NCBI GenBank assembly: GCA_964498735.1
Contig: CAZCHJ010000002.1
Span: forward strand, 1 to 36,943
DNA from: an uncultured Gammaproteobacteria bacterium
GTDB lineage: Bacteria; Patescibacteriota; Patescibacteriia; Magasanikbacterales; UBA922
DNA length: 36,943 bases
Direction of reading: 5' to 3'
Shown here: piece by piece, positions 4,663-22,582 of the stretch
How the letters are laid out: each line of letters starts with the position of its first letter
How positions within the stretch are numbered: position 1 is the stretch's first letter
Notes under the pieces: generated by a model
The model's database searches: none
What the model saw: the letters and a program-made list of their open reading frames with translations, nothing else
Told to the model about the DNA's origin: nothing
Translations under genes and position numbers: made by a program

Positions 4663-4980
4663 ATGCAGATTACACAAAAACAAATTGAAGAGCAGTTCGC
4701 ACAAATGGCACCGCTCGGCAAAGTAAATAGAGAAAAATCGATCTCGAATTACGAAAAGATCGAGACGATTATGAAGGAAGCTTTGCCGAAGAAAATATGG
4801 TGGTTTGCGTATGAGTTCGTCGGCCGCACGCAAACGATGAAACACGGAGAAGTATTCATCAGCTACGAGATCTCCGCACGTTTGGCTGAAATGGTCGATG
4901 AAGGATTAGTGATAACCGCGAGATCGGAAGGCAAGCTCAATCTATATCGATTACCGGATCATGTTCTCGTTTCGAGATAA
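4663..4980 (+). CDS. Hypothetical protein, possible winged-helix
   Basis: ORF abuts its neighbours. The segment ISARLAEMVDEGLVITARSEGKLNLYRL looks wHTH-like. Confidence 0.4.
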   Translation: MQITQKQIEEQFAQMAPLGKVNREKSISNYEKIETIMKEALPKKIWWFAYEFVGRTQTMKHGEVFISYEISARLAEMVDEGLVITARSEGKLNLYRLPDHVLVSR

Positions 4981-5315
4981 TGAATCACATTCCGAAGTGG
5001 CTCAATGATTCTTTCAATGATGATCCCTATTACAAAAAATGTTGTCTCGCTTTCCTCGGAGGTTGTAATGGGAGGATCGAAAGACACCACGCTTTGATCT
5101 TCGCAGGGCGACAAGTGCAAGCTCGATTCTGTATTCTTCCGGCGTGTCATGCTCATCACGAACTTGCTCGCCGGAAAGATATCAAAGAGCGCTTCGATTG
5201 GATCCTCTTGAATCGTGCGAATATGGGCGAATTACTAGCGATAAGTAAGGCCGAAAATTACGTCGCAATAAGAGATCGGCTCAATGAAAAATATGGCGCA
5301 TACAAATACCGGTAG
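4980..5315 (+). CDS. Cys/His-rich HNH-like zinc-binding protein
   Basis: CCLAFLGGCNGRIERHH...FCILPACHAHH fits the C..C..HH...PxCxxHH pattern of small His-Me finger proteins. Confidence 0.4.
   Translation: MNHIPKWLNDSFNDDPYYKKCCLAFLGGCNGRIERHHALIFAGRQVQARFCILPACHAHHELARRKDIKERFDWILLNRANMGELLAISKAENYVAIRDRLNEKYGAYKYR
5228..5238 (+). promoter_or_regulatory. Copy of the recurrent motif CGAATTACTAG
   Basis: This exact 11-mer is also found at 14407 and 22062. Here it lies inside a CDS, 45 nt upstream of the ATG at 5284. Confidence 0.35.
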
Positions 5316-5868
5316 ATACATTCTTGCAATCGTTGTGATCGGCATTTCTTCGCTCATAGTGTTATCATTATTTTCGAAGCACCCCTCCATTCTTCCGGCG
5401 TCTCGGGCGCCTGAAAATCCGGAGGTAAAAGTGCCGATCGAAGTGCCGGTCGTGGATTTCACGGACGCACAAGATCAGCCGGTAAAAAAACCGGCACCAA
5501 AAGCCGAGCCGAAAGTCGAATCTCCGGCACCGGCACCATTACAAAATAATCAGGTAGATCCGAAACCGGAAGAAACGCAACCAACGACGATCGTGAATAT
5601 AACAACTTCACCGACGACGGTGATCGTAAATACTCCGGCTCCGGAAACGCCACAAGCACCAATGCCAACGAGCGCAAAAACGTACAACATCACGAAAGGC
5701 ACAGAGCCTTTCAAGCAGAATCTTACCGAAGCAGAAGTTCGAGAGTTCGCAGGATCTCTCAACAACTATGTGAAGTGGAAGAAGCAAATGAAGGAGGCCG
5801 ATCTTGAGATCGTCTTCGGTGCTCTCTCATCAAACGGTTATGCAGTTCAAGAAAACGATCCGCAATAA
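5284..5868 (+). CDS. Membrane-anchored Pro/Thr-rich protein
   Basis: N-terminal TM helix YILAIVVIGISSLIVLSLF followed by a Pro-rich spacer. An alternative ATG is at 5293. Confidence 0.5.
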   Translation: MKNMAHTNTGRYILAIVVIGISSLIVLSLFSKHPSILPASRAPENPEVKVPIEVPVVDFTDAQDQPVKKPAPKAEPKVESPAPAPLQNNQVDPKPEETQPTTIVNITTSPTTVIVNTPAPETPQAPMPTSAKTYNITKGTEPFKQNLTEAEVREFAGSLNNYVKWKKQMKEADLEIVFGALSSNGYAVQENDPQ

Positions 5869-6199
5869 ACCCGTCGGCGAGAAGGAAAGCGACGTTCAAA
5901 ACACGATATGCGAATATCTTGAATTGAAACGTCGCTGTTTCTTCCGCCTCAACAACATTCCAGCTTTCAATCGCGGTGGTGAAGGAGGATTCACGATGAG
6001 ACGTCTTCCAAAGTACACACCGAAAGGGCTTCCGGATATTATCGTGATCGCCGGAGGACTGTTCTTTGGTCTCGAAGTGAAGAAGTCGGACGGCCGACAA
6101 TCACCGGATCAAAAAGCTTTCGAGAAATGGGTGAAAGATCACGGCGGCCGATACCACGTCGTCAGATCGGTCGAAGACGTAAAAGCTATCGGGTTATGA
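5804..6199 (+). CDS. VRR-NUC domain nuclease
   Basis: GLPDIIVIAGGLFFGLEVKKSDGRQSPDQKAFEKWVKDHGGRYHVV contains the D...ExK core and the Q of VRR-NUC. The TTG start at 5804 has AAGGAGG 6 nt upstream. An alternative ATG is at 5840. Confidence 0.7.
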   Translation: MRSSSVLSHQTVMQFKKTIRNKPVGEKESDVQNTICEYLELKRRCFFRLNNIPAFNRGGEGGFTMRRLPKYTPKGLPDIIVIAGGLFFGLEVKKSDGRQSPDQKAFEKWVKDHGGRYHVVRSVEDVKAIGL

Positions 6200-6342
6200 A
6201 TATAAAAAACTTGCGCGAATGGCTGATCTATAAAAAAGGAGAAGTGAGCACCGCAGTAAATCGAGAAGCAACGATCGGGGAGCTAATGCAGGTCGTCGAG
6301 CTTCTTGTTGAGAAGGAGGAAAATGAAAACAAAGATCATTAA
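6196..6342 (+). CDS. Hypothetical protein (48 aa)
   Basis: ATGA overlap with the VRR-NUC stop. Sequence begins MNIKNLREWLIYKKGE. Confidence 0.35.
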   Translation: MNIKNLREWLIYKKGEVSTAVNREATIGELMQVVELLVEKEENENKDH

Positions 6343-6730
6343 AAAACGTCCTCCGTTTTGGAGAATCCTGAAGATCTTTTTTCCGGAGTACGATCCGGAC
6401 GGAACGGTCTCCGTCGCTTTCGGCCGAACGATCTACACAAACCAAGAGATCCCGAAGGACTACATCGTGCACGAAGAACAGCACCTCAAGCAACATTGTC
6501 ATTCGTACACGATCGCGGTGCTTTGGTGGATCATGTATTGCCTCTCGAAGAGCTTCCGTTATTCGCAAGAGCGAGACGCCTTCCGTACTCAATTCAAATG
6601 GATCATGGAGAATGAGCCGTGGACGCGAGCACGCAAGATCGTCGAACTCGCAAAAGGTCTCTCGTCTCCGCTCTATGGATCAATGGTCGATGAGCGACAG
6701 GCACAAAAAGAATTGCTCATGTATGAATAA
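6323..6730 (+). CDS. Small HExxH-motif protein (putative zincin)
   Basis: ATG at 6323 is preceded by GAAGGAGGAAA. Motif IVHEEQHLKQH. Confidence 0.45.
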   Translation: MKTKIIKKRPPFWRILKIFFPEYDPDGTVSVAFGRTIYTNQEIPKDYIVHEEQHLKQHCHSYTIAVLWWIMYCLSKSFRYSQERDAFRTQFKWIMENEPWTRARKIVELAKGLSSPLYGSMVDERQAQKELLMYE

Positions 6731-7199
6731 AAAAATCAAAAAGCAAAAGCATACTCGCACAAAGCGAGCGATCGAGCCGGACGAGATCGTGGAGACGAAA
6801 GACTTCGCCGCGACGGTTGTGCTCAAAGACGGAAAGAAAGGATTTCAAGTCGATTCTCCGGCGTGGTACCAAACGCAAATGAATAAGTTCAAGGAGGGCG
6901 ACAAAGTCTCGATCTATATCTCGACACGCCGTCCAAAGCGCACGCTTCGACAGAATCGTTTCTATTGGAAATATCTCACGATGATCGGAGAGGAAACCGG
7001 AGAGCGTAATACCGAGAGCCTTCACAAGCTCTTCTCCGGAATGTTTCTCACCGAAGAGATCAAAGAGGTGCTCGGCCGTCAGGTTCGTATTGTGAAGAGC
7101 ACAACGACGCTCTCAAAGCATGATTTTGGCGAGTACATCGACAAGATCCACGCCGAAACCGGTATCGATCTACCGCCAACGGCCGACGAATTGGACTAG
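6723..7199 (+). CDS. NinB/Orf-like recombination mediator
   Basis: Starts MNKKIKK inside ORF 6612..7199. RRPKRTLRQNRFYWKYL parallels lambda NinB RNRSLDQNRKLWACL, and STTTLSKHDFGEYIDKIHAETGIDL parallels STSRMRVGEFAELLELIQAFG (recalled from memory). Confidence 0.6.
   Translation: MNKKIKKQKHTRTKRAIEPDEIVETKDFAATVVLKDGKKGFQVDSPAWYQTQMNKFKEGDKVSIYISTRRPKRTLRQNRFYWKYLTMIGEETGERNTESLHKLFSGMFLTEEIKEVLGRQVRIVKSTTTLSKHDFGEYIDKIHAETGIDLPPTADELD
7187..7199 (+). promoter_or_regulatory. Variant copy of the recurrent motif (CGAATTGGACTAG)
   Basis: CGAATTGGACTAGCAAG compares with CGAATCATTACTAGCAAG at 21812. Its TAG is the stop codon of the NinB-like gene. Confidence 0.3.
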
Positions 7200-7253
7200 C
7201 AAGAAAAAAACAAGTTTATCCACACCGGCCGAGTGGAGATCTCTTTCCGGAGG

Positions 7254-7262
7254 TGGTAAAAT
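7254..7262 (+). promoter_or_regulatory. Extended -10 element TGGTAAAAT
   Basis: Member of the TGGTAtAAT family seen at 11060, 16363, 18846 and 27887. It lies in the 109-nt gap before the ATG at 7309. Confidence 0.35.
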
Positions 7263-7308
7263 TAGGAGGTCAAAGGCTCAAATTATTATTTAATTTTTAA
7301 GAAAAACT

Positions 7309-7752
7309 ATGTTTGAAGCGATCATGTTCATGTTATTCGGGAAGCGTTGGGTGAAGTATCAAATGCTCACCGGTCTCAAGGGTGCAATCTTCGTAAACGA
7401 AATGGAGGTTGCAATGGATAAGGAAAAATACAACAAGGCAGTCGCCGCGAAAGAACAGCTTGAGAAGGATTACGCGGCTCTTCTTGAAACACCTCTCACC
7501 GATCCGAAAGAACTTCTCTCCGAAGAAGACTTGAAGAGTGAGAAAATGGTGTACGACATTCGAAAGAAGCTTGAAGCAGAACGTAAGGAGGCCGTCGAAG
7601 CTTTCAAGGTGAAGATCAAGGAGGCAACCTCCGAAGTCTCCGTCGCTGAAGCCAATATGGATCGTACTTACGGAATCTCTTACAGCAACCGTCGAAAGTT
7701 TGATTTTATCAGGGGCTATAAAATTGTTCCGACATACGCGGACAAGAAGTAA
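7309..7752 (+). CDS. Hypothetical coiled-coil protein
   Basis: Long + ORF with a Glu/Lys-rich heptad-like sequence. A later in-frame start is possible. Confidence 0.45.
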   Translation: MFEAIMFMLFGKRWVKYQMLTGLKGAIFVNEMEVAMDKEKYNKAVAAKEQLEKDYAALLETPLTDPKELLSEEDLKSEKMVYDIRKKLEAERKEAVEAFKVKIKEATSEVSVAEANMDRTYGISYSNRRKFDFIRGYKIVPTYADKK

Positions 7753-7757
7753 AAGTT

Positions 7758-14797: not shown

Positions 14798-16332
14798 AAA
14801 CAGAGCTACCATACAATCCGGAACAAGTGCGCGACATGGTCGCGAGCATGTACAAGAATCAGGACGGCACACCGCACGTCCTCGTTCCTTCGCAGATCGA
14901 TATCTTCGCGGAGATCTCAATGCGCTTGCACCCTCGCGTTCATTGCATGACACACACGCGCTTCGGTAAGTCGGAGACGGCCGGTCTCGCGGTGCTTACT
15001 CGTGTCGCTTCGTTTCCGGAGAAGTGGGCGATTGTTTCAGGATCCAAAGAGAAAGCGAAGATCATTATGAATTATGTGATCGCGCATATCTTCGACAATG
15101 AGTTCACGGCCGCACGTTTCCGTCTCGATAAAGGAGACAGCGCTGAAGCAATCAAGCGCCACCGTAATAAGAATCACCTCACCTTCGACGTCGGCAATGG
15201 CCTGATATCGGAGCTTTTTATTGGATCAGCAAAAGAGGCGATCGGTTTCGGTGCTCCGAATGTTCTCGCCGATGAAGCTTCCCTAATTGATGATCCTGAT
15301 TGGGCGCTCGTTATGCGTATGCTAAACGACAATCCGGACGACAACTTCCTCTTTGAGATCGGAAACCCTTTTCGACGCAATCACTTCCTCGATGAGAGTG
15401 AAGATCCTCTTTTTCATAAAATCAATATCGATTGCTACAAGGGAATGAAAGAAGGCCGTCTCACACAGGAAGCGATCGATGAAGCGAAAAAGTATAAGTT
15501 CTTCAGCGTGCTTTATGAAAACAAGTTCCCTCGCGCTGAAGACGTGGACGAGAAAGGTTGGTCATATCTTATTCCTCGCGAAGATCTTCAGGGTGCAATC
15601 AAACGCTTCGGATCAGCCGAGCATTATGGAATCAAGCGTCTCGGCTTGGACGTCGCGCGGTCAGGACGAAACTTCAACGCATGGGTACTTCGTGGAGACA
15701 ATTACGCGAAGCTTCTCCGAAAATCTTCAGAGACGGATCTCATGGAGGTTGCACGTCTCACGAAGAACATTATGAAAGAGCACGGTATCGATCCAAAGTA
15801 TACGTTCGTCGATGATACCGGCATGGGTGGAGGCGTTACCGATCGATTGAAAGAAGACGGTATTCACATCATTCCGGTCGTAGAAGGTGCGGCCGCGACA
15901 GAGGTTCGTATCGTTCGAGAACAAGATCCGAAGGATAAAACAAAGTTCAAGGACGTCGTAAAAAAAGAATATGCCAACATGCGAGCGCAGATATACGCCG
16001 GATCCGAAGGCCTTTCGAATTGGCTCAAGCGTCAAGGATCTCTTGAAGACATTGATATCGAGATCGATAACGGTCAGGGTTGGGACGAGGCGCTTGAGAT
16101 CCGATACAAGAAAAATGATCAAGGCCTCACGGTGATCGAGAGCAAGATCGATATGCGTGCTCGCGGAGTAGAATCTCCGGACGTGATCGACGCACTTGCT
16201 CTCACGTTTGCACCGACAGCAGTAGCAGAGCCGGTCAAAACATTTCACGCACCGGATCCGACAGCAATGCTTCAGCAAGGAGAAAGAATTGGATTCGGTA
16301 TCAACCGGCGAAGATATCCGGATCGAAAATAG
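14794..16332 (+). CDS. terL: Terminase large subunit
   Basis: Walker A-like THTRFGKSET, Walker B NVLADEASLI, coupling motif EIGNP. C-terminal RNaseH-like nuclease with LGLDVARSG, VDDTGMGGG and DVIDALAL. Confidence 0.9.
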   Translation: MKTELPYNPEQVRDMVASMYKNQDGTPHVLVPSQIDIFAEISMRLHPRVHCMTHTRFGKSETAGLAVLTRVASFPEKWAIVSGSKEKAKIIMNYVIAHIFDNEFTAARFRLDKGDSAEAIKRHRNKNHLTFDVGNGLISELFIGSAKEAIGFGAPNVLADEASLIDDPDWALVMRMLNDNPDDNFLFEIGNPFRRNHFLDESEDPLFHKINIDCYKGMKEGRLTQEAIDEAKKYKFFSVLYENKFPRAEDVDEKGWSYLIPREDLQGAIKRFGSAEHYGIKRLGLDVARSGRNFNAWVLRGDNYAKLLRKSSETDLMEVARLTKNIMKEHGIDPKYTFVDDTGMGGGVTDRLKEDGIHIIPVVEGAAATEVRIVREQDPKDKTKFKDVVKKEYANMRAQIYAGSEGLSNWLKRQGSLEDIDIEIDNGQGWDEALEIRYKKNDQGLTVIESKIDMRARGVESPDVIDALALTFAPTAVAEPVKTFHAPDPTAMLQQGERIGFGINRRRYPDRK

Positions 16333-16362
16333 TGTGGATAACGTGCTTGCAATAATAAAAAA

Positions 16363-16371
16363 TGGTATACT
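16363..16371 (+). promoter_or_regulatory. Extended -10 element TGGTATACT
   Basis: Lies in the 76-nt gap after terL, 37 nt before the ATG at 16409. Confidence 0.4.
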
Positions 16372-16408
16372 GTTTGCATTAAAAACCTAGCGCATATTTT
16401 TTACATGA

Positions 16409-17122
16409 ATGGCAAGATTTCAAACGTTCGCAGATCTTCCGATCGCTGATCAGCAAGAGCTTACTCGCGTTAGCGCGATAGCTTCAGCACAGCGAAACAC
16501 GGTCGAAGCCGAGTACATCGCGAATCGATCGGATTACCTTTACAACGAGATCCTTCTCACTAACGACGCGAACGAGATCATTCTCGCGAAAGGTCGTACT
16601 CTTCCGGCTACCGGAACATCAGGATTTCAAACCGGTGCTTACTTTATGATTGAGAACGCGGCTTCAACCGCGAATCCGACGTACAAGAACGTTGGATCTT
16701 CTTCGTCCGCTTTGTGGGTACAGAGCGACGCAACGATCGTTCCGGTAGCTCTTACGAGCGCACAGATCAAGGCTCTCAATACAACTCCGGTTGAGATCGT
16801 AGCCGCACAAGGCGCCGGAAAAGTTTTTGTCGTCGATTTCATCTTGCTCAAAATGAGCTTCCTCACGGCCGCTTACACCGGATCAAATGCTATTGAGGCT
16901 CGCTATACCGACGCTTCAGGGGCAAAGGTAACGGCAGACTTCCCGACATCAGGATTCCTCAACATTTCTTCGGGTAGTGCTTACTCACTCAATCGCGCAG
17001 TCGCAACCGCTCTTGTTGCACTCGCGAACGCTCCGATTGTTCTTGCCGTTCCTACCGCAGATCCGGCCGCCGGATCAGGTACAATCTCCGGCTTTGTTTT
17101 CGGTCGCGTCATAACTCTTTAA
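16409..17122 (+). CDS. Hypothetical (probably structural) protein, 237 aa
   Basis: Ala/Thr/Ser-rich ORF with a GAATGGC start, located between terL and the portal gene. Confidence 0.5.
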   Translation: MARFQTFADLPIADQQELTRVSAIASAQRNTVEAEYIANRSDYLYNEILLTNDANEIILAKGRTLPATGTSGFQTGAYFMIENAASTANPTYKNVGSSSSALWVQSDATIVPVALTSAQIKALNTTPVEIVAAQGAGKVFVVDFILLKMSFLTAAYTGSNAIEARYTDASGAKVTADFPTSGFLNISSGSAYSLNRAVATALVALANAPIVLAVPTADPAAGSGTISGFVFGRVITL

Positions 17123-17128
17123 TTTTGA

Positions 17129-18844
17129 ATGGCTGAATCAGCAACCCTCACAAAAACGTATAGTCTCGAAGAGAATCGCGCGGCACGAGTACATCAATAC
17201 CGCGAGGGTGCTTTCAACGATCAGCAACGCCGACATGAAGATTGGAGAGAGAACTATTCTCTTTACCGCGATCGAGTATTCACAAACCGTCTCACACAGC
17301 GACAGAGCGTGAATGTGCCTCTTATGAAAGAGACGATCCGCACTATGCTCTCAAAGACGGACGAGTTTACGGATATCTATTTCGAATCACTCTCCGGAGA
17401 CAAACAGAAAGAGATCTTCGCGAACGCATATTGGGATTACTTCTATCACATCGACAACCTCGAATTGAAGGATATCGTCGATAAGAAACAAGTCGGCCTT
17501 TACGGTCGCTCAATAATGAAACTCAACCTCTTCGACGGTCGCCCGACAGTCGAAGTTCTTGAGCCTTATGATTGGCTTTGTGATCGATATGCGGATCCGG
17601 CCGACATCAGCAATACCGCGAACTATCAGGCACACATCAATATCTTTCAGACGATCTCCGAGATCGAAAAGAATCCGCTTTATGATCAGGCGGCCGTTAC
17701 TCGTTTGCGTGAAAAATACGCGCAAGCAATGGGGCTTGCACTCTCGGAAGAGAACGTGAAAGCGCTTCAGGCAAAGAATGAGCGTATGCAAGATCTCGGC
17801 CTCTTCGACGTAAATAATCCTCAAGTCGGCGAAACATACGTCGAGATCAATGAGCACTATGTTCGCCTTTGGTGTGAAGAGGACAAGGATCTTCGGATCT
17901 TCCTCCGCATTACGGCCGACGGAGAATTGCTCTTCGAGAAGAAGCTCAAAGATTATCTCAATATTGATTTCTATCCATTCATCACTTGGGCGGACGATAT
18001 CGAGAAGACGGATATTTGGAGCGACGGTCTCGCTGATATCGTTCGAACTCCGAACAACGTTCTCAATTCTTGGTACTCGCAAATGGTAGAAAACCGCACA
18101 CTCCGAAACTTCGGTATGCACTTCTACGACGCGACACAGGGAGACGGTAAATGGGTACCGCAGTCATACGATCCGGCTCCGTGGGGATTCTATCCGGTTG
18201 CCGGAAACCCGAATGACGTCGTGAAGCAAGTCGAGATTCCTGATCTCTCCGAGAGCATGGACGAAATGAACTTCGTTATCGGAATGGTAGAGCGTGCAAC
18301 CGCAACAACCGCAACTGAAAAGGGATCCGAAACAAAGGGAGACGTTACGCTCGGCGAGGTGAAGATCATGCTCGCGAACTCGAATCAGCGTATCGTTTCA
18401 GTCGCGAAGTTTTACCGTCTTGCTCGAATCGAACTCGGTGAGAAGTGGTACAAGTTCGTCATGGCAAATGAGAAATGGATCAAGCCGGTCGATCTCTTCA
18501 AGAAGTCTTCAGTTTCCGGAAAATACTACAAGGAAAACGTCGGAACGGCTGATTGGAAAGACGAAGTCGGATATGCTTGTAAGGTCATTTCAACCGCAGA
18601 GCGCGAACAAAAGACGATTGAATCGATCACCAAGCTTCAGGCAGTCTCCGCAATGTTTCCCGACAACGTTCCTCTCAAGAAGATCCTCCGAAAGAAAGCG
18701 ATCGATATCCTCGATCTCACTCCGGAAGAACAGAAGGAAGTCATGGATTTTGAGCCACAAGCTCCGACGATGATGAATGAAGCAACGCCTTCTCCTTTAT
18801 CAACACCGACGGCACCGGTCGCGCCTACCGCACCGGCCGCGTAA
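17129..18844 (+). CDS. Portal protein (by size and position)
   Basis: 571 aa, following terL and preceding the scaffold and coat genes. Pro/Ala-rich C-terminal tail. No motif-level proof. Confidence 0.6.
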   Translation: MAESATLTKTYSLEENRAARVHQYREGAFNDQQRRHEDWRENYSLYRDRVFTNRLTQRQSVNVPLMKETIRTMLSKTDEFTDIYFESLSGDKQKEIFANAYWDYFYHIDNLELKDIVDKKQVGLYGRSIMKLNLFDGRPTVEVLEPYDWLCDRYADPADISNTANYQAHINIFQTISEIEKNPLYDQAAVTRLREKYAQAMGLALSEENVKALQAKNERMQDLGLFDVNNPQVGETYVEINEHYVRLWCEEDKDLRIFLRITADGELLFEKKLKDYLNIDFYPFITWADDIEKTDIWSDGLADIVRTPNNVLNSWYSQMVENRTLRNFGMHFYDATQGDGKWVPQSYDPAPWGFYPVAGNPNDVVKQVEIPDLSESMDEMNFVIGMVERATATTATEKGSETKGDVTLGEVKIMLANSNQRIVSVAKFYRLARIELGEKWYKFVMANEKWIKPVDLFKKSSVSGKYYKENVGTADWKDEVGYACKVISTAEREQKTIESITKLQAVSAMFPDNVPLKKILRKKAIDILDLTPEEQKEVMDFEPQAPTMMNEATPSPLSTPTAPVAPTAPAA

Positions 18845-18845
18845 G

Positions 18846-18854
18846 TGGTATAAT
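18846..18854 (+). promoter_or_regulatory. Extended -10 promoter TGGTATAAT
   Basis: Eleven nt separate the -10 from the ATG at 18866. Confidence 0.45.
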
Positions 18855-18865
18855 TTGATCATCGA

Positions 18866-19222
18866 ATGAAAGAACTTCTCGCAAGAATGGGAATAAAAGA
18901 AGAGGATCTCAATAAGCAAGAGATCCAAACTCTCAAGGCATGGGCGGAGGCTCTTGAGAAAAACATTCTCAAAGTCGAAGACATCAAAAAGTACCTTGAT
19001 AAAATGATCGTTTCCGTCGAGAAAGAGATCTCCGGTTACGATTACCCGAAAGACTTTTCATCAATGCTTTTCCGGAGACGACGTCTCCGCCACATGAAAG
19101 CTCGATTGTATAACTACATTATGCTTCGAGATTTCATCACGGCGCCGGAAGAGGCGAGGTCGTACATTGAAAAGCATATTAGCAACTTTAATCTTGAAAA
19201 GCTGAATGGCAACAAAAAATAA
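18866..19222 (+). CDS. Hypothetical coiled-coil protein (118 aa)
   Basis: + ORF with a GAATG start, located after the portal gene. Confidence 0.45.
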   Translation: MKELLARMGIKEEDLNKQEIQTLKAWAEALEKNILKVEDIKKYLDKMIVSVEKEISGYDYPKDFSSMLFRRRRLRHMKARLYNYIMLRDFITAPEEARSYIEKHISNFNLEKLNGNKK

Positions 19223-19409
19223 GAATCCAAAAGGCGGCAAGAAGTGTAAAACACCGAAAGGCACAAAGAAGTGCAAGACGCCGGTGAAGAAACTTCTCAA
19301 AGGCAAGAAGGCCAAGTCAAAAGCAAAGCCTCCAATGAAGACGGTCGCAATGGCACCGAAAGGCGCTATGCCTCCGATGAAGGGAGGTATGCCGATGAAG
19401 GTTATGTAG
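19206..19409 (+). CDS. Extremely Lys-rich small protein (67 aa)
   Basis: MATKNKNPKGGKKCKTPKGTKKCKTPVKKLLKGKKAKSKAKPP... with a GAATGGC start. An alternative frame (19271..) is also open across this region. Confidence 0.4.
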   Translation: MATKNKNPKGGKKCKTPKGTKKCKTPVKKLLKGKKAKSKAKPPMKTVAMAPKGAMPPMKGGMPMKVM

Positions 19410-19424
19410 TCGAATCATTATTAG
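19409..19424 (+). promoter_or_regulatory. Copy of the recurrent motif (GTCGAATCATTATTAG)
   Basis: Starts on the last base of the upstream TAG stop codon (19407-19409) and ends 20 nt before the ATG at 19445. Confidence 0.4.
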
Positions 19425-19444
19425 TTTCTAATTTTCACAATCGT

Positions 19445-19768
19445 ATGGACGCAGAATCAACAAAGATCCTCAACGAGATCCTCGCAGGGGACAAGGACAC
19501 AATGTCCGAAGAAGCAATGCACTTTGTTATGGCACGCCGCTCGTACCTCAATGACGAACAGCGTAAGCGTTTCGAAAAGGAGATCAAGCTCCACGAAGCC
19601 GGAAAACTTTTCCCTTTCAATAAGGAAGAAGAGGGCGACGGTCTCGAAGGAATGAGCATGAAAGATCTCGCGAAGAAAGCAAAGGAACTCGGAATCAAGG
19701 GTTACACCGGTATGGATAAGAAAGCTCTTATCCGCGCAATCGAAGCCGAGACAGAGGGCGACGAATAG
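19445..19768 (+). CDS. Protein with a C-terminal HeH / Rho_N-like DNA-binding motif
   Basis: Starts MDAESTKIL inside ORF 19271..19768. MSMKDLAKKAKELGIKGYTGMDKKALIRAIEA resembles the Rho N-terminal/SAP-like helix-extension-helix. Confidence 0.45.
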   Translation: MDAESTKILNEILAGDKDTMSEEAMHFVMARRSYLNDEQRKRFEKEIKLHEAGKLFPFNKEEEGDGLEGMSMKDLAKKAKELGIKGYTGMDKKALIRAIEAETEGDE

Positions 19769-19837
19769 TTCGAAAATGTGCGCCACTAATTCTTAAAATT
19801 ATGCCAAACCCTTGCTTGCAAGGACGGCAAGAACGAA

Positions 19838-20626
19838 ATGAGCGAAACACACACACCGCCAACCTCTCCAACCGGAGAGACGCCGGAGATTCCTACTCCG
19901 ACAACAAAGGAAACAGAGGTGCGAGAAGGGGAAGAGAATACTCCTACTCCACCGGCACCACAGCCTGAAGTACCGGCCGCTCCGGCGCCCGAAGTTACTC
20001 CACCGGCTCCGGCACCGGTTACTCCACCCGTCGATTACGCGAAGAAGTTCTCGGAATCGGCACGAAGGAATCAAATCGTGGAAGGCCAAAAGGCCGAACT
20101 CGAAAAAACTCTCGCGGACATTACTAAACAGGAACGTCCGACAGACGAGGAAATGCGTCAGGCAGAGCCGAATTGGGATTACCTTTCGGACTTTGAAAAG
20201 AATCAGGCGATCAAAACCGAGATTCTCACTCGCAAACAAGCGAAACGAGATCTCGAAGACGCCGCCAAGCGCAAGGCCGAAGAGGATCTCGAAGCTCTCG
20301 AAGCATATTGTTTCAACGAGCCGAAACTCAAAGGCAAAGAAGAAGAGTTTGCAAAGTTTGCGACGTCGAAGAAAAATCGCGGAGCACCTATGGAAGTTCT
20401 TCTCAACGCTTTTCTTTTTGAAGTAGGAGGTGCTACACCTCCGGCTCCGGCCGCAGATCCTACCCCTCCGCAACCTGAAACGCCTCCGAGCCTCAACCGC
20501 TCGACGCCAACAGGGGGGAATCCTCCGGTAGAGACGCCTAAAGGATTATCCGATGAAGACATCGAGCATATCCGAAAGACGGATCACAAGCGCTACAACG
20601 AAATGGTACGCACCGGACAGATCTAG
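19838..20626 (+). CDS. Scaffolding protein (by position and composition)
   Basis: Pro-rich N- and C-terminal segments flank a charged helical core. It lies immediately upstream of the coat gene. Confidence 0.55.
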   Translation: MSETHTPPTSPTGETPEIPTPTTKETEVREGEENTPTPPAPQPEVPAAPAPEVTPPAPAPVTPPVDYAKKFSESARRNQIVEGQKAELEKTLADITKQERPTDEEMRQAEPNWDYLSDFEKNQAIKTEILTRKQAKRDLEDAAKRKAEEDLEALEAYCFNEPKLKGKEEEFAKFATSKKNRGAPMEVLLNAFLFEVGGATPPAPAADPTPPQPETPPSLNRSTPTGGNPPVETPKGLSDEDIEHIRKTDHKRYNEMVRTGQI

Positions 20627-20662
20627 TCTTCGAAACGTTCCTCTCATTCACATTTTTTTTGA

Positions 20663-21751
20663 ATGGCTAACTACGGAACAAACGTGGGAGAGAAGTTCGC
20701 AAAGAACACTCTCAAGATCTTCTTCCAGCGAGCAATCGCACCTGATATCACGAATCAGGACTATGAGGGAGAGATCAAAGGTGGCGGTGCAGATCGCCTC
20801 AACGTGCTTACGTTCGCCGCTCTCGGCCTCAAGGATTACACCGGATCAGCAATGTCCGTGGACACTCCTTCGGAATCCGAAGCAACTCTCGTCGTCGATA
20901 AAAAGAAGGCTTACTACTTCCAGATCGAAAGCTTTGCGAAGTTCTCTTCTTACGTCGAAGACGCAAGCTCAACGCTCATTGACACCGCAGGAAAGACACT
21001 TGCTCGCACCGTGGATAACGGCGTGCTCGGTCTCTACGGCGACGTAGCGTCGGGCAACCGTGTCGGTACTGATTACACTACCGGAACGGTTACTGTGGAC
21101 GTTACTACCGGCGCCGTTACAGGATCCGGCACAACGTTCACTTCAGCAATGGTCGGTCTCGGCTTCAAGGCCGCCGGTCATTCTGTTTGGTACCGCGTCA
21201 AAACTTACTCTTCTTCAACGGCAATCGTCATTGAAGACGACAAGGACGACGTAGCTTCGGCTTACACCGGAGGCGCTATCGGTGCCGGTGCAACGTACAC
21301 GATCGAGGCAGTTACCGCGATCACGGTTTCGAAGACGACAATCTTCGATTACCTCGTCGATCTCAAGACTAAACTTGACGACGCAGAGATCCCTGAAGAG
21401 GATCGTTGGTTCGTAGCTCCGGCTATCGTTGCCAACCTCCTTCTCAAATCTTCACAGCTTCAGACAGCCGTTTCGACAGCTTACGAAGACGTGATCAAGA
21501 AGGGTATTCTCGGCTACGTTGCCGGATTCAAGATCTACTCTAACAAGCAGGTCTCCGGTAACAACACGACAGGTTACTACTGTCTCGCCGGTCATAAGTC
21601 CTTCATCACTATGGCAATGGCCTTCACCGAATCAGGTGTCGAGCCGTTCATCGGTGGTTTCGGACAGAACTTCAAAGGCCTCAACTGTTACGGTTTCAAA
21701 GTAGCAGACGAACGTCGCAAGGCTGGTGCTTACCTTTTTGCAAAGGTCTAG
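20663..21751 (+). CDS. Major capsid protein (P22-coat-like HK97 fold)
   Basis: The N-terminus MANYGTNVGEKFAKNTLKIFFQRAIAPDITNQDYEGEIKGGGADRLNVLTF is typical of P22-type coat proteins. 362 aa, located after the scaffold gene. Confidence 0.75.
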   Translation: MANYGTNVGEKFAKNTLKIFFQRAIAPDITNQDYEGEIKGGGADRLNVLTFAALGLKDYTGSAMSVDTPSESEATLVVDKKKAYYFQIESFAKFSSYVEDASSTLIDTAGKTLARTVDNGVLGLYGDVASGNRVGTDYTTGTVTVDVTTGAVTGSGTTFTSAMVGLGFKAAGHSVWYRVKTYSSSTAIVIEDDKDDVASAYTGGAIGAGATYTIEAVTAITVSKTTIFDYLVDLKTKLDDAEIPEEDRWFVAPAIVANLLLKSSQLQTAVSTAYEDVIKKGILGYVAGFKIYSNKQVSGNNTTGYYCLAGHKSFITMAMAFTESGVEPFIGGFGQNFKGLNCYGFKVADERRKAGAYLFAKV

Positions 21752-21777
21752 CTCTACTTTGAAGATATGATCTTCCT

Positions 21778-21803
21778 CTTTCTCTCTCTTCGGAGGGAGA
21801 AAG
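21778..21803 (+). terminator. Stable stem-loop with a TTCG tetraloop after the coat gene (no U-tract)
   Basis: CTTTCTCTCTC TTCG GAGGGAGAAAG forms 11 bp, including one G-U. Confidence 0.35.
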
Positions 21804-21809
21804 TGATAA

Positions 21810-21826
21810 GGTCGAATCATTACTAG
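21810..21826 (+). promoter_or_regulatory. Copy of the recurrent motif (GGTCGAATCATTACTAG)
   Basis: Intergenic. It ends 18 nt before the ATG at 21845. Confidence 0.4.
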
Positions 21827-21844
21827 CAAGCTTACAATCTTTCA

Positions 21845-22057
21845 ATGGCAAAAAACGAAATGGTATCGCGCAACGGTGCGGATCGTGCCGAGATCGAAGC
21901 AAAGCGAGGGATCTCTCGTGATGAGAACGGTAAAATCGTTTTCACGAAGGAGCAGAAGCTCGCTCGTATTGCTCACTTCGAAGCGAAGATCCTCGACTTC
22001 AAAACGCGCACTAAAAACGCGCAATCAGAGATCAAGAAGCTCAAAGCTTCTCTCTAA
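21845..22057 (+). CDS. Hypothetical coiled-coil protein (70 aa)
   Basis: + ORF bracketed by two copies of the recurrent motif. Confidence 0.45.
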   Translation: MAKNEMVSRNGADRAEIEAKRGISRDENGKIVFTKEQKLARIAHFEAKILDFKTRTKNAQSEIKKLKASL

Positions 22058-22059
22058 CC

Positions 22060-22073
22060 GGTCGAATTACTAG
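22060..22073 (+). promoter_or_regulatory. Copy of the recurrent motif (GGTCGAATTACTAG)
   Basis: Intergenic. It ends 21 nt before the ATG at 22095. Confidence 0.4.
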
Positions 22074-22094
22074 AAAATAATTTTTTGATTCTCA

Positions 22095-22528: not shown

Positions 22529-22557
22529 GCACTCTTTCCGCCGCGCGGAAGGCGTGC
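22529..22557 (+). terminator. GC-rich stem-loop after the 22095..22517 CDS
   Basis: GCACTCTTTCCGC CGC GCGGAAGGCGTGC forms a 13-bp stem with one mismatch and one G-U. No clear U-tract. Confidence 0.3.
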
Positions 22558-22582
22558 GTGATGAGAGCTTTTGCTCCTATGA

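Follow-up and report, generated by a model that had tools for sequence, protein, structure and literature searches.

The Start-Associated Sequences (SAS/ESAS) of Cluster K mycobacteriophages are present in 11-19 copies per genome, at 3-7 bp from the start codon, contain the Shine-Dalgarno (SD) core AGGAG and are suspected to contribute to the initiation of translation (Pope et al., 2011; PMC3203893). The promoter-early stem-loop (PeSL) cassettes of T4-type phages combine strong sigma-70 consensus promoters with terminator stem-loops (Arbiol et al., 2010; PMC2839356). By analogy, these two systems appear to be the closest described counterparts of a bipartite motif that we analysed in the phage contig CAZCHJ010000002.1 (C2 hereafter). 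The window, i.e., the whole stretch of 36,943 nucleotides considered here, corresponds to this entire contig, which belongs to a 986-kb metagenome-assembled genome (MAG) of 95 contigs. The motif is composed of GGTCGAAT followed by TTAYTAG and is found on the coding strand before about 10 gene starts of this 37-kb phage. To our knowledge, almost nothing is known about gene expression in phages infecting ultra-small bacteria (such as those of the candidate phyla radiation, CPR, or Patescibacteria) or in hosts that ignore SD sequences.

The motif is real, locked in one orientation, selected at the nucleotide level, conserved in a phage clade and private to the phage. From sequence comparisons, we tentatively read it as a clade-specific RNA signal located in mRNA leaders or intercistronic regions, a reading that is narrowly favoured over an activator-dependent phage promoter. 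Among the alternatives proposed by a first-pass annotation of the window (binding of a regulator, processing of the RNA or enhancement of translation), the evidence tilts to a role in RNA; this function, and its kind (translation, processing or stability), are what we infer from the observations below.

A bipartite motif preceding phage gene starts

Three occurrences of an exact 11-mer, CGAATTACTAG, had been reported in the first-pass annotation. This count is borne out (3 copies versus 0.02 expected, a number reached in 0 of 100 shuffles), with copies at positions 5228, 14407 and 22063, the last of which had been placed one base off, at 22062. Re-reading of the sequence also confirmed the longer variants described at 21810, 19409, 12609 and 7187, and the range of 17-24 nt given for the distance between the final G and the ATG of the five start-proximal copies (17, 24, 20, 18 and 21 nt). 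TTAYTAG on its own is not enriched in the window (7 matches versus 3.7 expected). Each of the six TTAYTAG words of the + strand has C[GA]AA(T) before it, at a separation of 0 or 3 nt (conditional p ~4e-7 for C[GA]AA preceding all six), a configuration that is never observed on the - strand. The word CGAATTAC is present five times on the + strand (2893, 4745, 5228, 14407 and 22063) and never on the - strand, for ~0.6 expected. Once degenerate copies at 96, 2893, 4745, 5251 and 7268 are considered, the motif family includes ~10-11 members in the window, which are listed here with one doubtful candidate.

96-108, + strand: variant GTCGTTTTATAAG within the replication-initiator leader (ATG 173)
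2891-2904, + strand: variant GGCGAATTACATCG right after a hairpin CCTTCC...GGGAAGG, 27 nt before the exonuclease ATG 2932
4745-4755, + strand: CGAATTACGAA within open reading frame (ORF) 4663-4980, 15 nt before the in-frame ATG 4771; putatively functional
5226-5238, + strand: GGCGAATTACTAG, an exact copy located within the 3' end of gene 4980-5315 and written with the rare Leu codons TTA-CTA
5251-5262, + strand: degenerate second copy CCGAAAATTACG, 21 nt before ATG 5284
7187-7199, + strand: CGAATTGGACTAG, with a TAG that serves as stop codon for gene 6612-7199; doubtful member
7268-7296, + strand: variant GGTCAAAGGCTCAAATTATTATT (7268-7290), then TAATTT (7291-7296) ending 12 nt before ATG 7309
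12609-12625, + strand: GGTCAAATTATTATTAG, beginning 3 nt past the tRNA-Met 3' end (tRNA at 12535-12606) and ending 17 nt short of the endolysin ATG
14405-14417, + strand: CCCGAATTACTAG, an exact copy located within the 3' end of gene 14021-14449 and ending 24 nt short of the ATG of an IF-1 homolog (14442-14642), also with rare Leu codons
19409-19434, + strand: GTCGAATCATTATTAG (19409-19424), then TAATTT (19429-19434) ending 10 nt before ATG 19445 of a gene with a Rho_N domain (19445-19768)
21768-21838, + strand: post-capsid hairpin (21768-21814), whose 3' base is the AGGTCG of the motif, GGTCGAATCATTACTAG (21810-21826) and TACAAT (21833-21838) before ATG 21845
22060-22083, + strand: GGTCGAATTACTAG (22060-22073), then TAATTT (22078-22083) ending 11 nt before ATG 22095 of a phrog_644 gene

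The position of these sites relative to gene starts is constrained. Eight of them start 20-36 nt before an ATG (24-34 nt in the observed cases), for ~0.7 expected, and the distance from TTAYNAR (the general form of the second half) to the ATG is 15-27 nt, being kept whether the motif lies on one side or the other of a canonical -10 box. The copy at 96-108, located 24 nt after a canonical -10 TATACT (66-71), abuts a pseudoknot-like structure (109-155), and this arrangement is repeated in the relatives g1 (GTCGCAAATTTACAAA) and g2 (GTCGAATTTATTTAATAG). Similarly, the 7268 copy begins 5 nt past the extended -10 TGGTAAAAT (7254-7262) and the orthologous site of g1 is laid out alike. The 7187 copy is doubtful, since its TTAY half is missing and comparative support is lacking.

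Some of these sites also bear on the annotation of the surrounding genes. The in-frame internal ATG 4771 of ORF 4663-4980 could correspond to a shorter product or indicate a mis-called start. ORF 12381-12629 is spurious, overlapping the tRNA-Met (CAT) at 12535-12606. This tRNA has its own -10, GGTATAAT (12484-12491), 43 nt upstream, suggesting that the endolysin gene is probably co-transcribed with the tRNA.

The two copies located within coding sequence, 5228 and 14407, both encode Leu-Leu as TTA-CTA. These codons represent only 2.7% (TTA) and 3.0% (CTA) of the leucine codons, and the TTA-CTA spelling is used in 2 of 43 Leu-Leu pairs (0.035 expected), both of them within motif copies. The use of rare codons in these copies therefore shows that selection acts on the nucleotides and not on the peptide. 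A peptide-coding explanation (RSNHY* or RSNY*) was rejected, the contexts being incompatible and one copy being located behind a tRNA.

Conservation in related phages

For comparison, we retrieved 80 loci encoding relatives of the capsid protein. The first-pass annotation had counted a lack of conservation at equivalent positions among what would speak against the motif; the motif is in fact kept at orthologous junctions. Its bipartite form in the close clade of IMG/VR relatives is GGTCG[A/T]A, 0-5 nt, TTAYNAR. The region following the capsid gene always exhibits the same layout, composed of a hairpin, GGTCG[A/T]A, 0-5 nt (12 in L011), TTAT[T/A/C]A[A/G], ~20 nt and the ATG. The other conserved junctions are the leader of the replication gene and the sequences just ahead of the phrog_644 and Rho_N genes. 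After the tRNA-Met, relatives retain the second half alone, as TTATCAA, TTTATTAA or ATTATAA directly behind the tRNA.

The composite motif is present 28 times on the + strand versus 3 times on the - strand in the close clade (224 kb), and shows no enrichment in distant relatives (749 kb), with 18 and 19 occurrences by strand. Distant relatives carry AAGGAG-type SD sequences at the same junctions, and the motif is confined to an SD-less sub-clade. Within this sub-clade, each genome has its own uniform variant of the first half, namely GGTCGAA for the window, L001 and L015 and GGTCGTA for L003-L006 and L009. The gene encoding a 70-aa protein (21845) sits between the copies at 21810 and 22060; it is missing in L011-L013, where a single copy precedes the phrog_644 gene. 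Exact-word scans of IMG/VR only produced chance-level matches, and the ends of contigs carrying this phage in other assemblies do not coincide with the motif. An identical phrog_644 gene is carried by contigs of SRR6837570, SRR6837549, ERZ27282891 and ERZ27283040.

RNA structures adjoining the motif

A stable RNA structure adjoins ~7 of the 10 window copies, corresponding to the 3' end of the tRNA (12606), to hairpins (2850-2890, 7226-7256, 19380-19400 and 21768-21814) or to the pseudoknot of the replication leader. At the capsid junction, the first half of the motif is physically part of a covarying RNA hairpin. This hairpin is conserved in 8 phages, with 8 of its 18 pairs changed on both sides in a compensated manner; its 3' strand AGGTCG, including the GGUCG of the motif, is invariant and the 5' partner varies via G-U and C-G pairs. 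The capsid junction is an exception in this respect, the probability that GGUCG pairs with upstream sequence elsewhere being the same as with shuffled flanks. The pseudoknot-like fold that follows the copy at 96-108 (109-155; S1 109-115/137-143 and S2 123-136/145-155) is present in the window, g1 and g2. By eye, g1 and g2 have wholly different yet complementary S2 arms, together with a compensated S1 pair.

None of the hairpins adjacent to the motif is followed by a U-tract, no intrinsic terminator was predicted in the + strand intergenic regions, and a comparison with Rfam detected nothing besides the tRNA. The second half TTAYNAR is often found 1-24 nt downstream of a consensus TGnTATAAT (copies 96 and 7268 of the window; L006, L009, L011, g1 and g2) and is therefore included in the transcribed leader.

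Other structural features of the phage RNA can be noted. All intergenic hairpins (~2850-2890, 7226-7256, 19380-19400, 21768-21814, 22530-22560 and 123-155) are rich in pyrimidines in the 5' arm (CCUCC-like) and in purines in the 3' arm (GGAGG-like), a polarity that is never reversed among phage intergenic hairpins and is shared by the hairpin of the host 16S leader. In addition, a structured leader (GCCAAACCC-hairpin-GGACGGC), with stems that vary, is present before the scaffold gene (19803-19828 in the window) in all close relatives.

The two halves of the motif are variably spaced, by 0 or 3 nt within the window and by 0-5 nt (once 12) among relatives, which suits recognition as single-stranded RNA better than recognition by an RNA polymerase (RNAP) or recognition of duplex DNA. 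This variability bears on the proposal that the motif is a duplex-DNA operator, bound by a helix-turn-helix (HTH) regulator of the phage that would tune or block transcription at gene junctions, as do the stoperators of L5-like mycobacteriophages. The motif is indeed a short asymmetric site of one orientation that occupies short intergenic spaces close to stop codons, and the phage encodes small HTH and winged HTH proteins. However, an internal spacing of 0, 3 or 5 nt is hard to fit with a rigid protein-DNA interface, the position of the motif follows the downstream ATG rather than the stop codons, and no integrase or repressor was present among the PHROG and Pfam matches, giving no sign of lysogeny. 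We thus consider an operator improbable.

A possible signal acting in RNA

Gene expression in the host has features that could explain the purpose of such a signal. An SD-like word is present upstream of 10% of the MAG genes, which corresponds to the background and thus to no SD signal, and SD sites are nearly absent from the phage genes of C2; the host 16S rRNA keeps the canonical CCUCCU at its 3' end despite these SD-free genes. The commonest hexamer upstream of host genes, TATACT, peaks 8-10 nt before the ATG, indicating that host mRNAs are mostly near-leaderless, and a T is present at -1 in 76% of host gene starts. Leaderless-type expression thus appears to be the norm in this host, whose MAG also encodes a four-domain S1 protein and RNase III.

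In the RNA reading, a cis signal specific to this phage clade would mark gene starts that are expressed independently. The single-stranded element would be GGUCGAAU, a spacer of 0-5 nt and UUAYNAR, usually ending 15-24 nt before the AUG, and a trans factor encoded by the phage or by the host would read it. Internal cistrons located behind a hairpin, a tRNA or a long gap would in this way gain a usable initiation region, a likely purpose in a host without SD pairing and with mostly near-leaderless mRNAs. The element could just as well define a processed 5' end. The observations that narrowly favour the RNA reading include, besides those mentioned above, the failure to find a phage RNAP or sigma factor, the lack of an equivalent of T(-7) in TTAYNAR and the restriction of the motif to the SD-less sub-clade.

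A more specific, and unlikely, version of this scenario is that of an SD-independent translation-initiation signal private to the phage, in which a phage factor would read the motif as a single-stranded landing or tethering site on the mRNA. The IF-1 homolog and the initiator-type tRNA of the phage might take part in this process, and internal cistrons would be able to start in spite of ribosomes that rely on near-leaderless mRNAs.

Several observations weigh against an RNA signal. Host genes do not carry the motif, which makes a signal read purely by the host translation machinery unlikely, so that a phage factor must be assumed. The complementarity between the motif and 16S rRNA is no better than that of shuffled motifs. 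The word TAATTT is located 10-12 nt before the ATG behind three copies (7268, 19409 and 22060; ATGs 7309, 19445 and 22095) and TACAAT at 6 nt behind the 21810 copy (ATG 21845); 5 of the 10 TAATTT words of the + strand are start-proximal, for 0.3 expected. These words resemble -10 boxes and are spaced like the canonical ones, which are located at 11 nt in this phage (before ATGs 18866 and 27907), favouring a promoter at those sites. In g1, the motif is found twice upstream of a consensus leaderless promoter, outside its transcript. Finally, repeated, orientation-locked intergenic motifs of phages mostly turn out to be promoters.

A direct pairing with 16S rRNA (ATTACTAGC with the conserved CUAGUAA region, host positions ~1316-1326) was also considered and rejected, since the duplex energies are like those of shuffled motifs (p 0.25-1.0); the TTATAAG and TTATCAA of relatives do not retain complementarity to CUAGUAA. 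A mimicry of the T-loop or of a tRNA-like structure (GGTCGAAT versus GGTTCGAAT) was rejected as well, the GTA variants breaking the equivalent of the invariant A58.

A possible phage-specific promoter class

The main alternative is that the motif corresponds to the upstream recognition element of a phage-specific class of promoters, used by the host RNAP together with a phage activator or sigma-appropriating protein; we regard this as possible, if somewhat doubtful. Candidate activators would be an 80-aa HTH protein resembling sigma region 4 (1435-1677) and a MarR-like protein (10690-11067). From the weak -10 boxes TAATTT and TACAAT, a few nt downstream of the motif, transcription would then begin 3-6 nt ahead of the ATG and yield mRNAs with short leaders, a geometry shared with the host and with the consensus promoters of the phage, and each hairpin and its motif would form a stem-loop-promoter cassette flanking small exchangeable genes. 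The phage specificity of the motif is consistent with such a promoter, and its lineage-specific variants, uniform in each genome, suggest a co-evolving phage factor. The presence of the 70-aa gene between two copies, and its absence in L011-L013, resembles the shuffling mediated by PeSL (PMC2839356).

The TTAYNAR half is often TATAAATA in g1, where several copies have this sequence. It is the consensus of the T4 late promoter, a -10-only element read by gp55/gp33. In the window, the 8-mers matching this T4 late position are TACTAGCA, TACTAGAA and TATTAGTT, with no conserved T(-7).

Other features of the sites are less favourable to a promoter. Six of the ~10 copies (96, 2893, 4745, 5228, 12609 and 14407) lack a -10-like box within a workable distance, and the spacings are loose, with 0-8 nt between the motif and TAATTT, 11-16 nt between GTCRAA and the -10-like box and 0-5 nt between the halves. 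We rejected the first half as a fixed -35 element on the basis of this 11-16 nt spacing. In the replication leader, a transcription start 7 nt past the motif would remove the 5' arm of the conserved covarying structure. Moreover, copies are present both in early and late regions and right behind strong consensus promoters.

The second half does not correspond to a sigma-70 -10 element either, as the first-pass annotation had noted. Such an element is a hexamer, TAnnnT, in which A(-11) and T(-7) are invariant and which often follows a TG. TTAYNAR ends in R and has neither the conserved T(-7) nor the TG, whereas the -10 boxes are TATACT/TATAAT in the host and TGnTATAAT in the phage. The halves of the motif and the composite are not enriched in 832 host upstream regions, and we consequently rejected the hypothesis of a promoter class recognized by one of the two alternative sigma factors of the host.

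The resemblance to promoters of single-subunit phage RNAPs, suggested in the first-pass annotation, did not hold: such promoters are contiguous conserved blocks of ~17-23 bp with fixed internal spacing, and a rigid promoter of this type would not tolerate a gap of 0-5 nt between halves (12 in one relative). The same annotation had stated that the window encodes no such polymerase, and PHROG and Pfam scans of the window proteins agree, retrieving none. Neither a T7-like RNAP nor a sigma region 2 was detected in the near-complete genome of the window or in the relatives G001 and G002, which are rated 100% complete. PF00940 was not found in the MAG (G000) or in G001-G004, a weak negative obtained by a search without positive control. 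Sigma70_r2 is absent from G001-G004 and the window has no match to a PHROG late sigma factor, although very divergent factors could escape these searches. The sole sigma-like match of the window, a Sigma70_r4 HTH in the 80-aa protein, is below the cut-off (E=1e-3); no sigma factor, gp55-like protein or RNAP was detected.

We also compared the presence and absence of proteins in the window and g1-g4, and no reader protein was identified in this way. Five proteins are shared by the motif-positive window, g1 and g2 and missing from g3 and g4, which lack the motif: the replication initiator, the DnaC-like loader and the products of 194 aa (5284), 177 aa (11007) and 70 aa (21845). Gene 5284 is itself preceded by two motif copies. 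Its product has 18 distant homologs, no match in Pfam or PDB, and a single-sequence AlphaFold model with a pLDDT of 53, which is unusable.

Weak similarity to the rRNA antitermination signal

The motif could also be a boxA-like site mimicking the antitermination signal of host rRNA operons, which would load NusB/S10-type factors and ensure processive transcription through the phage hairpins. The 16S leaders of the host lineage contain a conserved CU-rich hairpin (TTTCTCTTTTTTCTTT...AAAGAAAAAAGG) followed by G[A/T]TC[A/T]TTACAAT, and the host 23S leader carries GATCGTTCACAATTT, which matches 13 of 16 positions of the Escherichia coli boxA (rRNA leaders at G000 C15:16950-17060 and C60:480-515; L087-L103). 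The 21813 copy CGAATCATTACTAG, also behind a CU-rich hairpin, matches the host CGATCATTACAAT at 10 of 12 positions with one insertion, several copies are located shortly downstream of promoters, and the host encodes NusB (PF01029 on contig C31, E=5.6e-38). The genes for NusB and RNase III are neighbours on that contig.

The similarity is nevertheless statistically weak. When compared with the host boxA GATCATTACAATT, the best copy has a p of ~0.01 and the others 0.05-0.5, all with indels, the short copies require a deletion of 2 nt in the box, and there is no similarity to the 23S boxA. Besides, ~10 copies per 37 kb far exceed what antitermination would need, no intrinsic terminator to be overcome was predicted in the + strand intergenic regions, a search of the 88%-complete MAG detected no Rho, and the true boxA-like words of the phage (6334 and 33827) are located away from the motif sites. 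A boxA-like function hence has little probability.

The phage genome and other sequence signals

All genes of C2 are located on the + strand, and its GC content is 47.8% versus ~40% for the MAG. The contig is collinear with G001, a 35.8-kb IMG/VR genome rated 100% complete, and is short by a few hundred bases at most. It encodes a replication and recombination module of lambdoid type (initiator, DnaC-like loader, Sak4, exonuclease, SSB, RusA-like and NinB), as well as a methyltransferase, a tRNA-Met, an endolysin, an IF-1 homolog, TerL, portal, capsid and large tail proteins (PHROG and Pfam scans). The genomes of the relatives of the MAG are all 0.7-1.2 Mb in size at >90% completeness, indicating that the host is an ultra-small bacterium similar to CPR/Patescibacteria.

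Consensus phage promoters (TGnTATAAT) are abundant and lie 6-15 nt before ATGs, with examples at ~7254, 16363, 18846, 27887 and 36015. In the phage clade, most extended -10 promoters have DnaA-box-like 9-mers TTATC[C/A]ACA (often AAGTTATCMACA) ~30-65 nt upstream of the -10; the window has such sites at 7216-7224 (TTATCCACA) and 16333-16341 (inverted), and many are present in g1 and g2. The 38 phage genes end with TAA (22), TAG (15) or TGA (1), and the start contexts TGAATG and GAATG are very common in the phage, even when no upstream ORF ends there.

The coding strand of the phage also avoids several short words to an extreme degree and in a strand-specific manner: GACC (1 versus 95 GGTC), CTGC (2 versus 101 GCAG), TCTG (11 versus 133 CAGA), GACCG (0 versus 57 CGGTC) and GATCTG (0 versus 34 CAGATC). 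No such bias is observed on the coding strands of the host, and relatives avoid other subsets (L001, GACC 0 versus 52; L012, CTGC 3 versus 59; L025, GGTC 10 versus 72 GACC). This avoidance resembles an escape from a defence that depends on orientation, for example a Type III-like restriction-modification system or an RNA/ssDNA nuclease.

Comparison with known systems

The phage clade possesses two clearly separable sets of gene-start signals, one composed of consensus extended -10 promoters positioned to give near-leaderless mRNAs and the other of the bipartite motif. If the latter acts in RNA, it would represent a rare phage-specific code for initiation or processing; if it is a promoter element, it would define a new activator-dependent class without recognisable sigma factor. 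In both cases, the motif provides a mutable handle, with ~30 sites across relatives, for experiments and for the annotation of gene starts.

Like T7-like promoters, the motif is ~17 nt long and locked in orientation, and its ...ACTAG ending recalls their ...ACTATAG; it differs from them by its variable spacing and by copies that diverge far more than promoters of the T7 group. With the boxA of rrn operons and of the lambda nut sites, which binds NusB-NusE, it shares the association of a short single-stranded RNA word with a hairpin downstream of a promoter. There is a partial likeness to the rrn boxA of the host lineage, GATCATTACAAT, which is statistically unconvincing, and the motif differs from boxA in needing internal indels, in being present in many copies per genome and in having no evident terminators to overcome.

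The resemblance to PeSL cassettes lies in a stem-loop combined with a conserved signal of short length, both recurring where small non-essential genes adjoin, and in the presence or absence of a gene between two copies (here the 70-aa gene 21845). The phage signal, however, has no consensus -35/-10, its hairpins have no U-tract, and the TGnTATAAT promoters are separate from it.

Finally, the SAS and the phage motif are both short asymmetric repeats that are linked to translation starts, with nearly all copies in the same orientation. Both are conserved in a phage cluster at genes belonging to various families, are next to absent in the host genome and, for about half of the copies, are associated with a paired or inverted-repeat feature upstream. 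Unlike the SAS, the phage motif ends 15-24 nt upstream of the ATG, has no GGAG or SD core and is found with an SD-free host; it is also bipartite with a variable spacer and is present in both early and structural regions. As RNA, the inverted repeats of ESAS show no covariation, in contrast to the capsid-junction hairpin of the phage motif.

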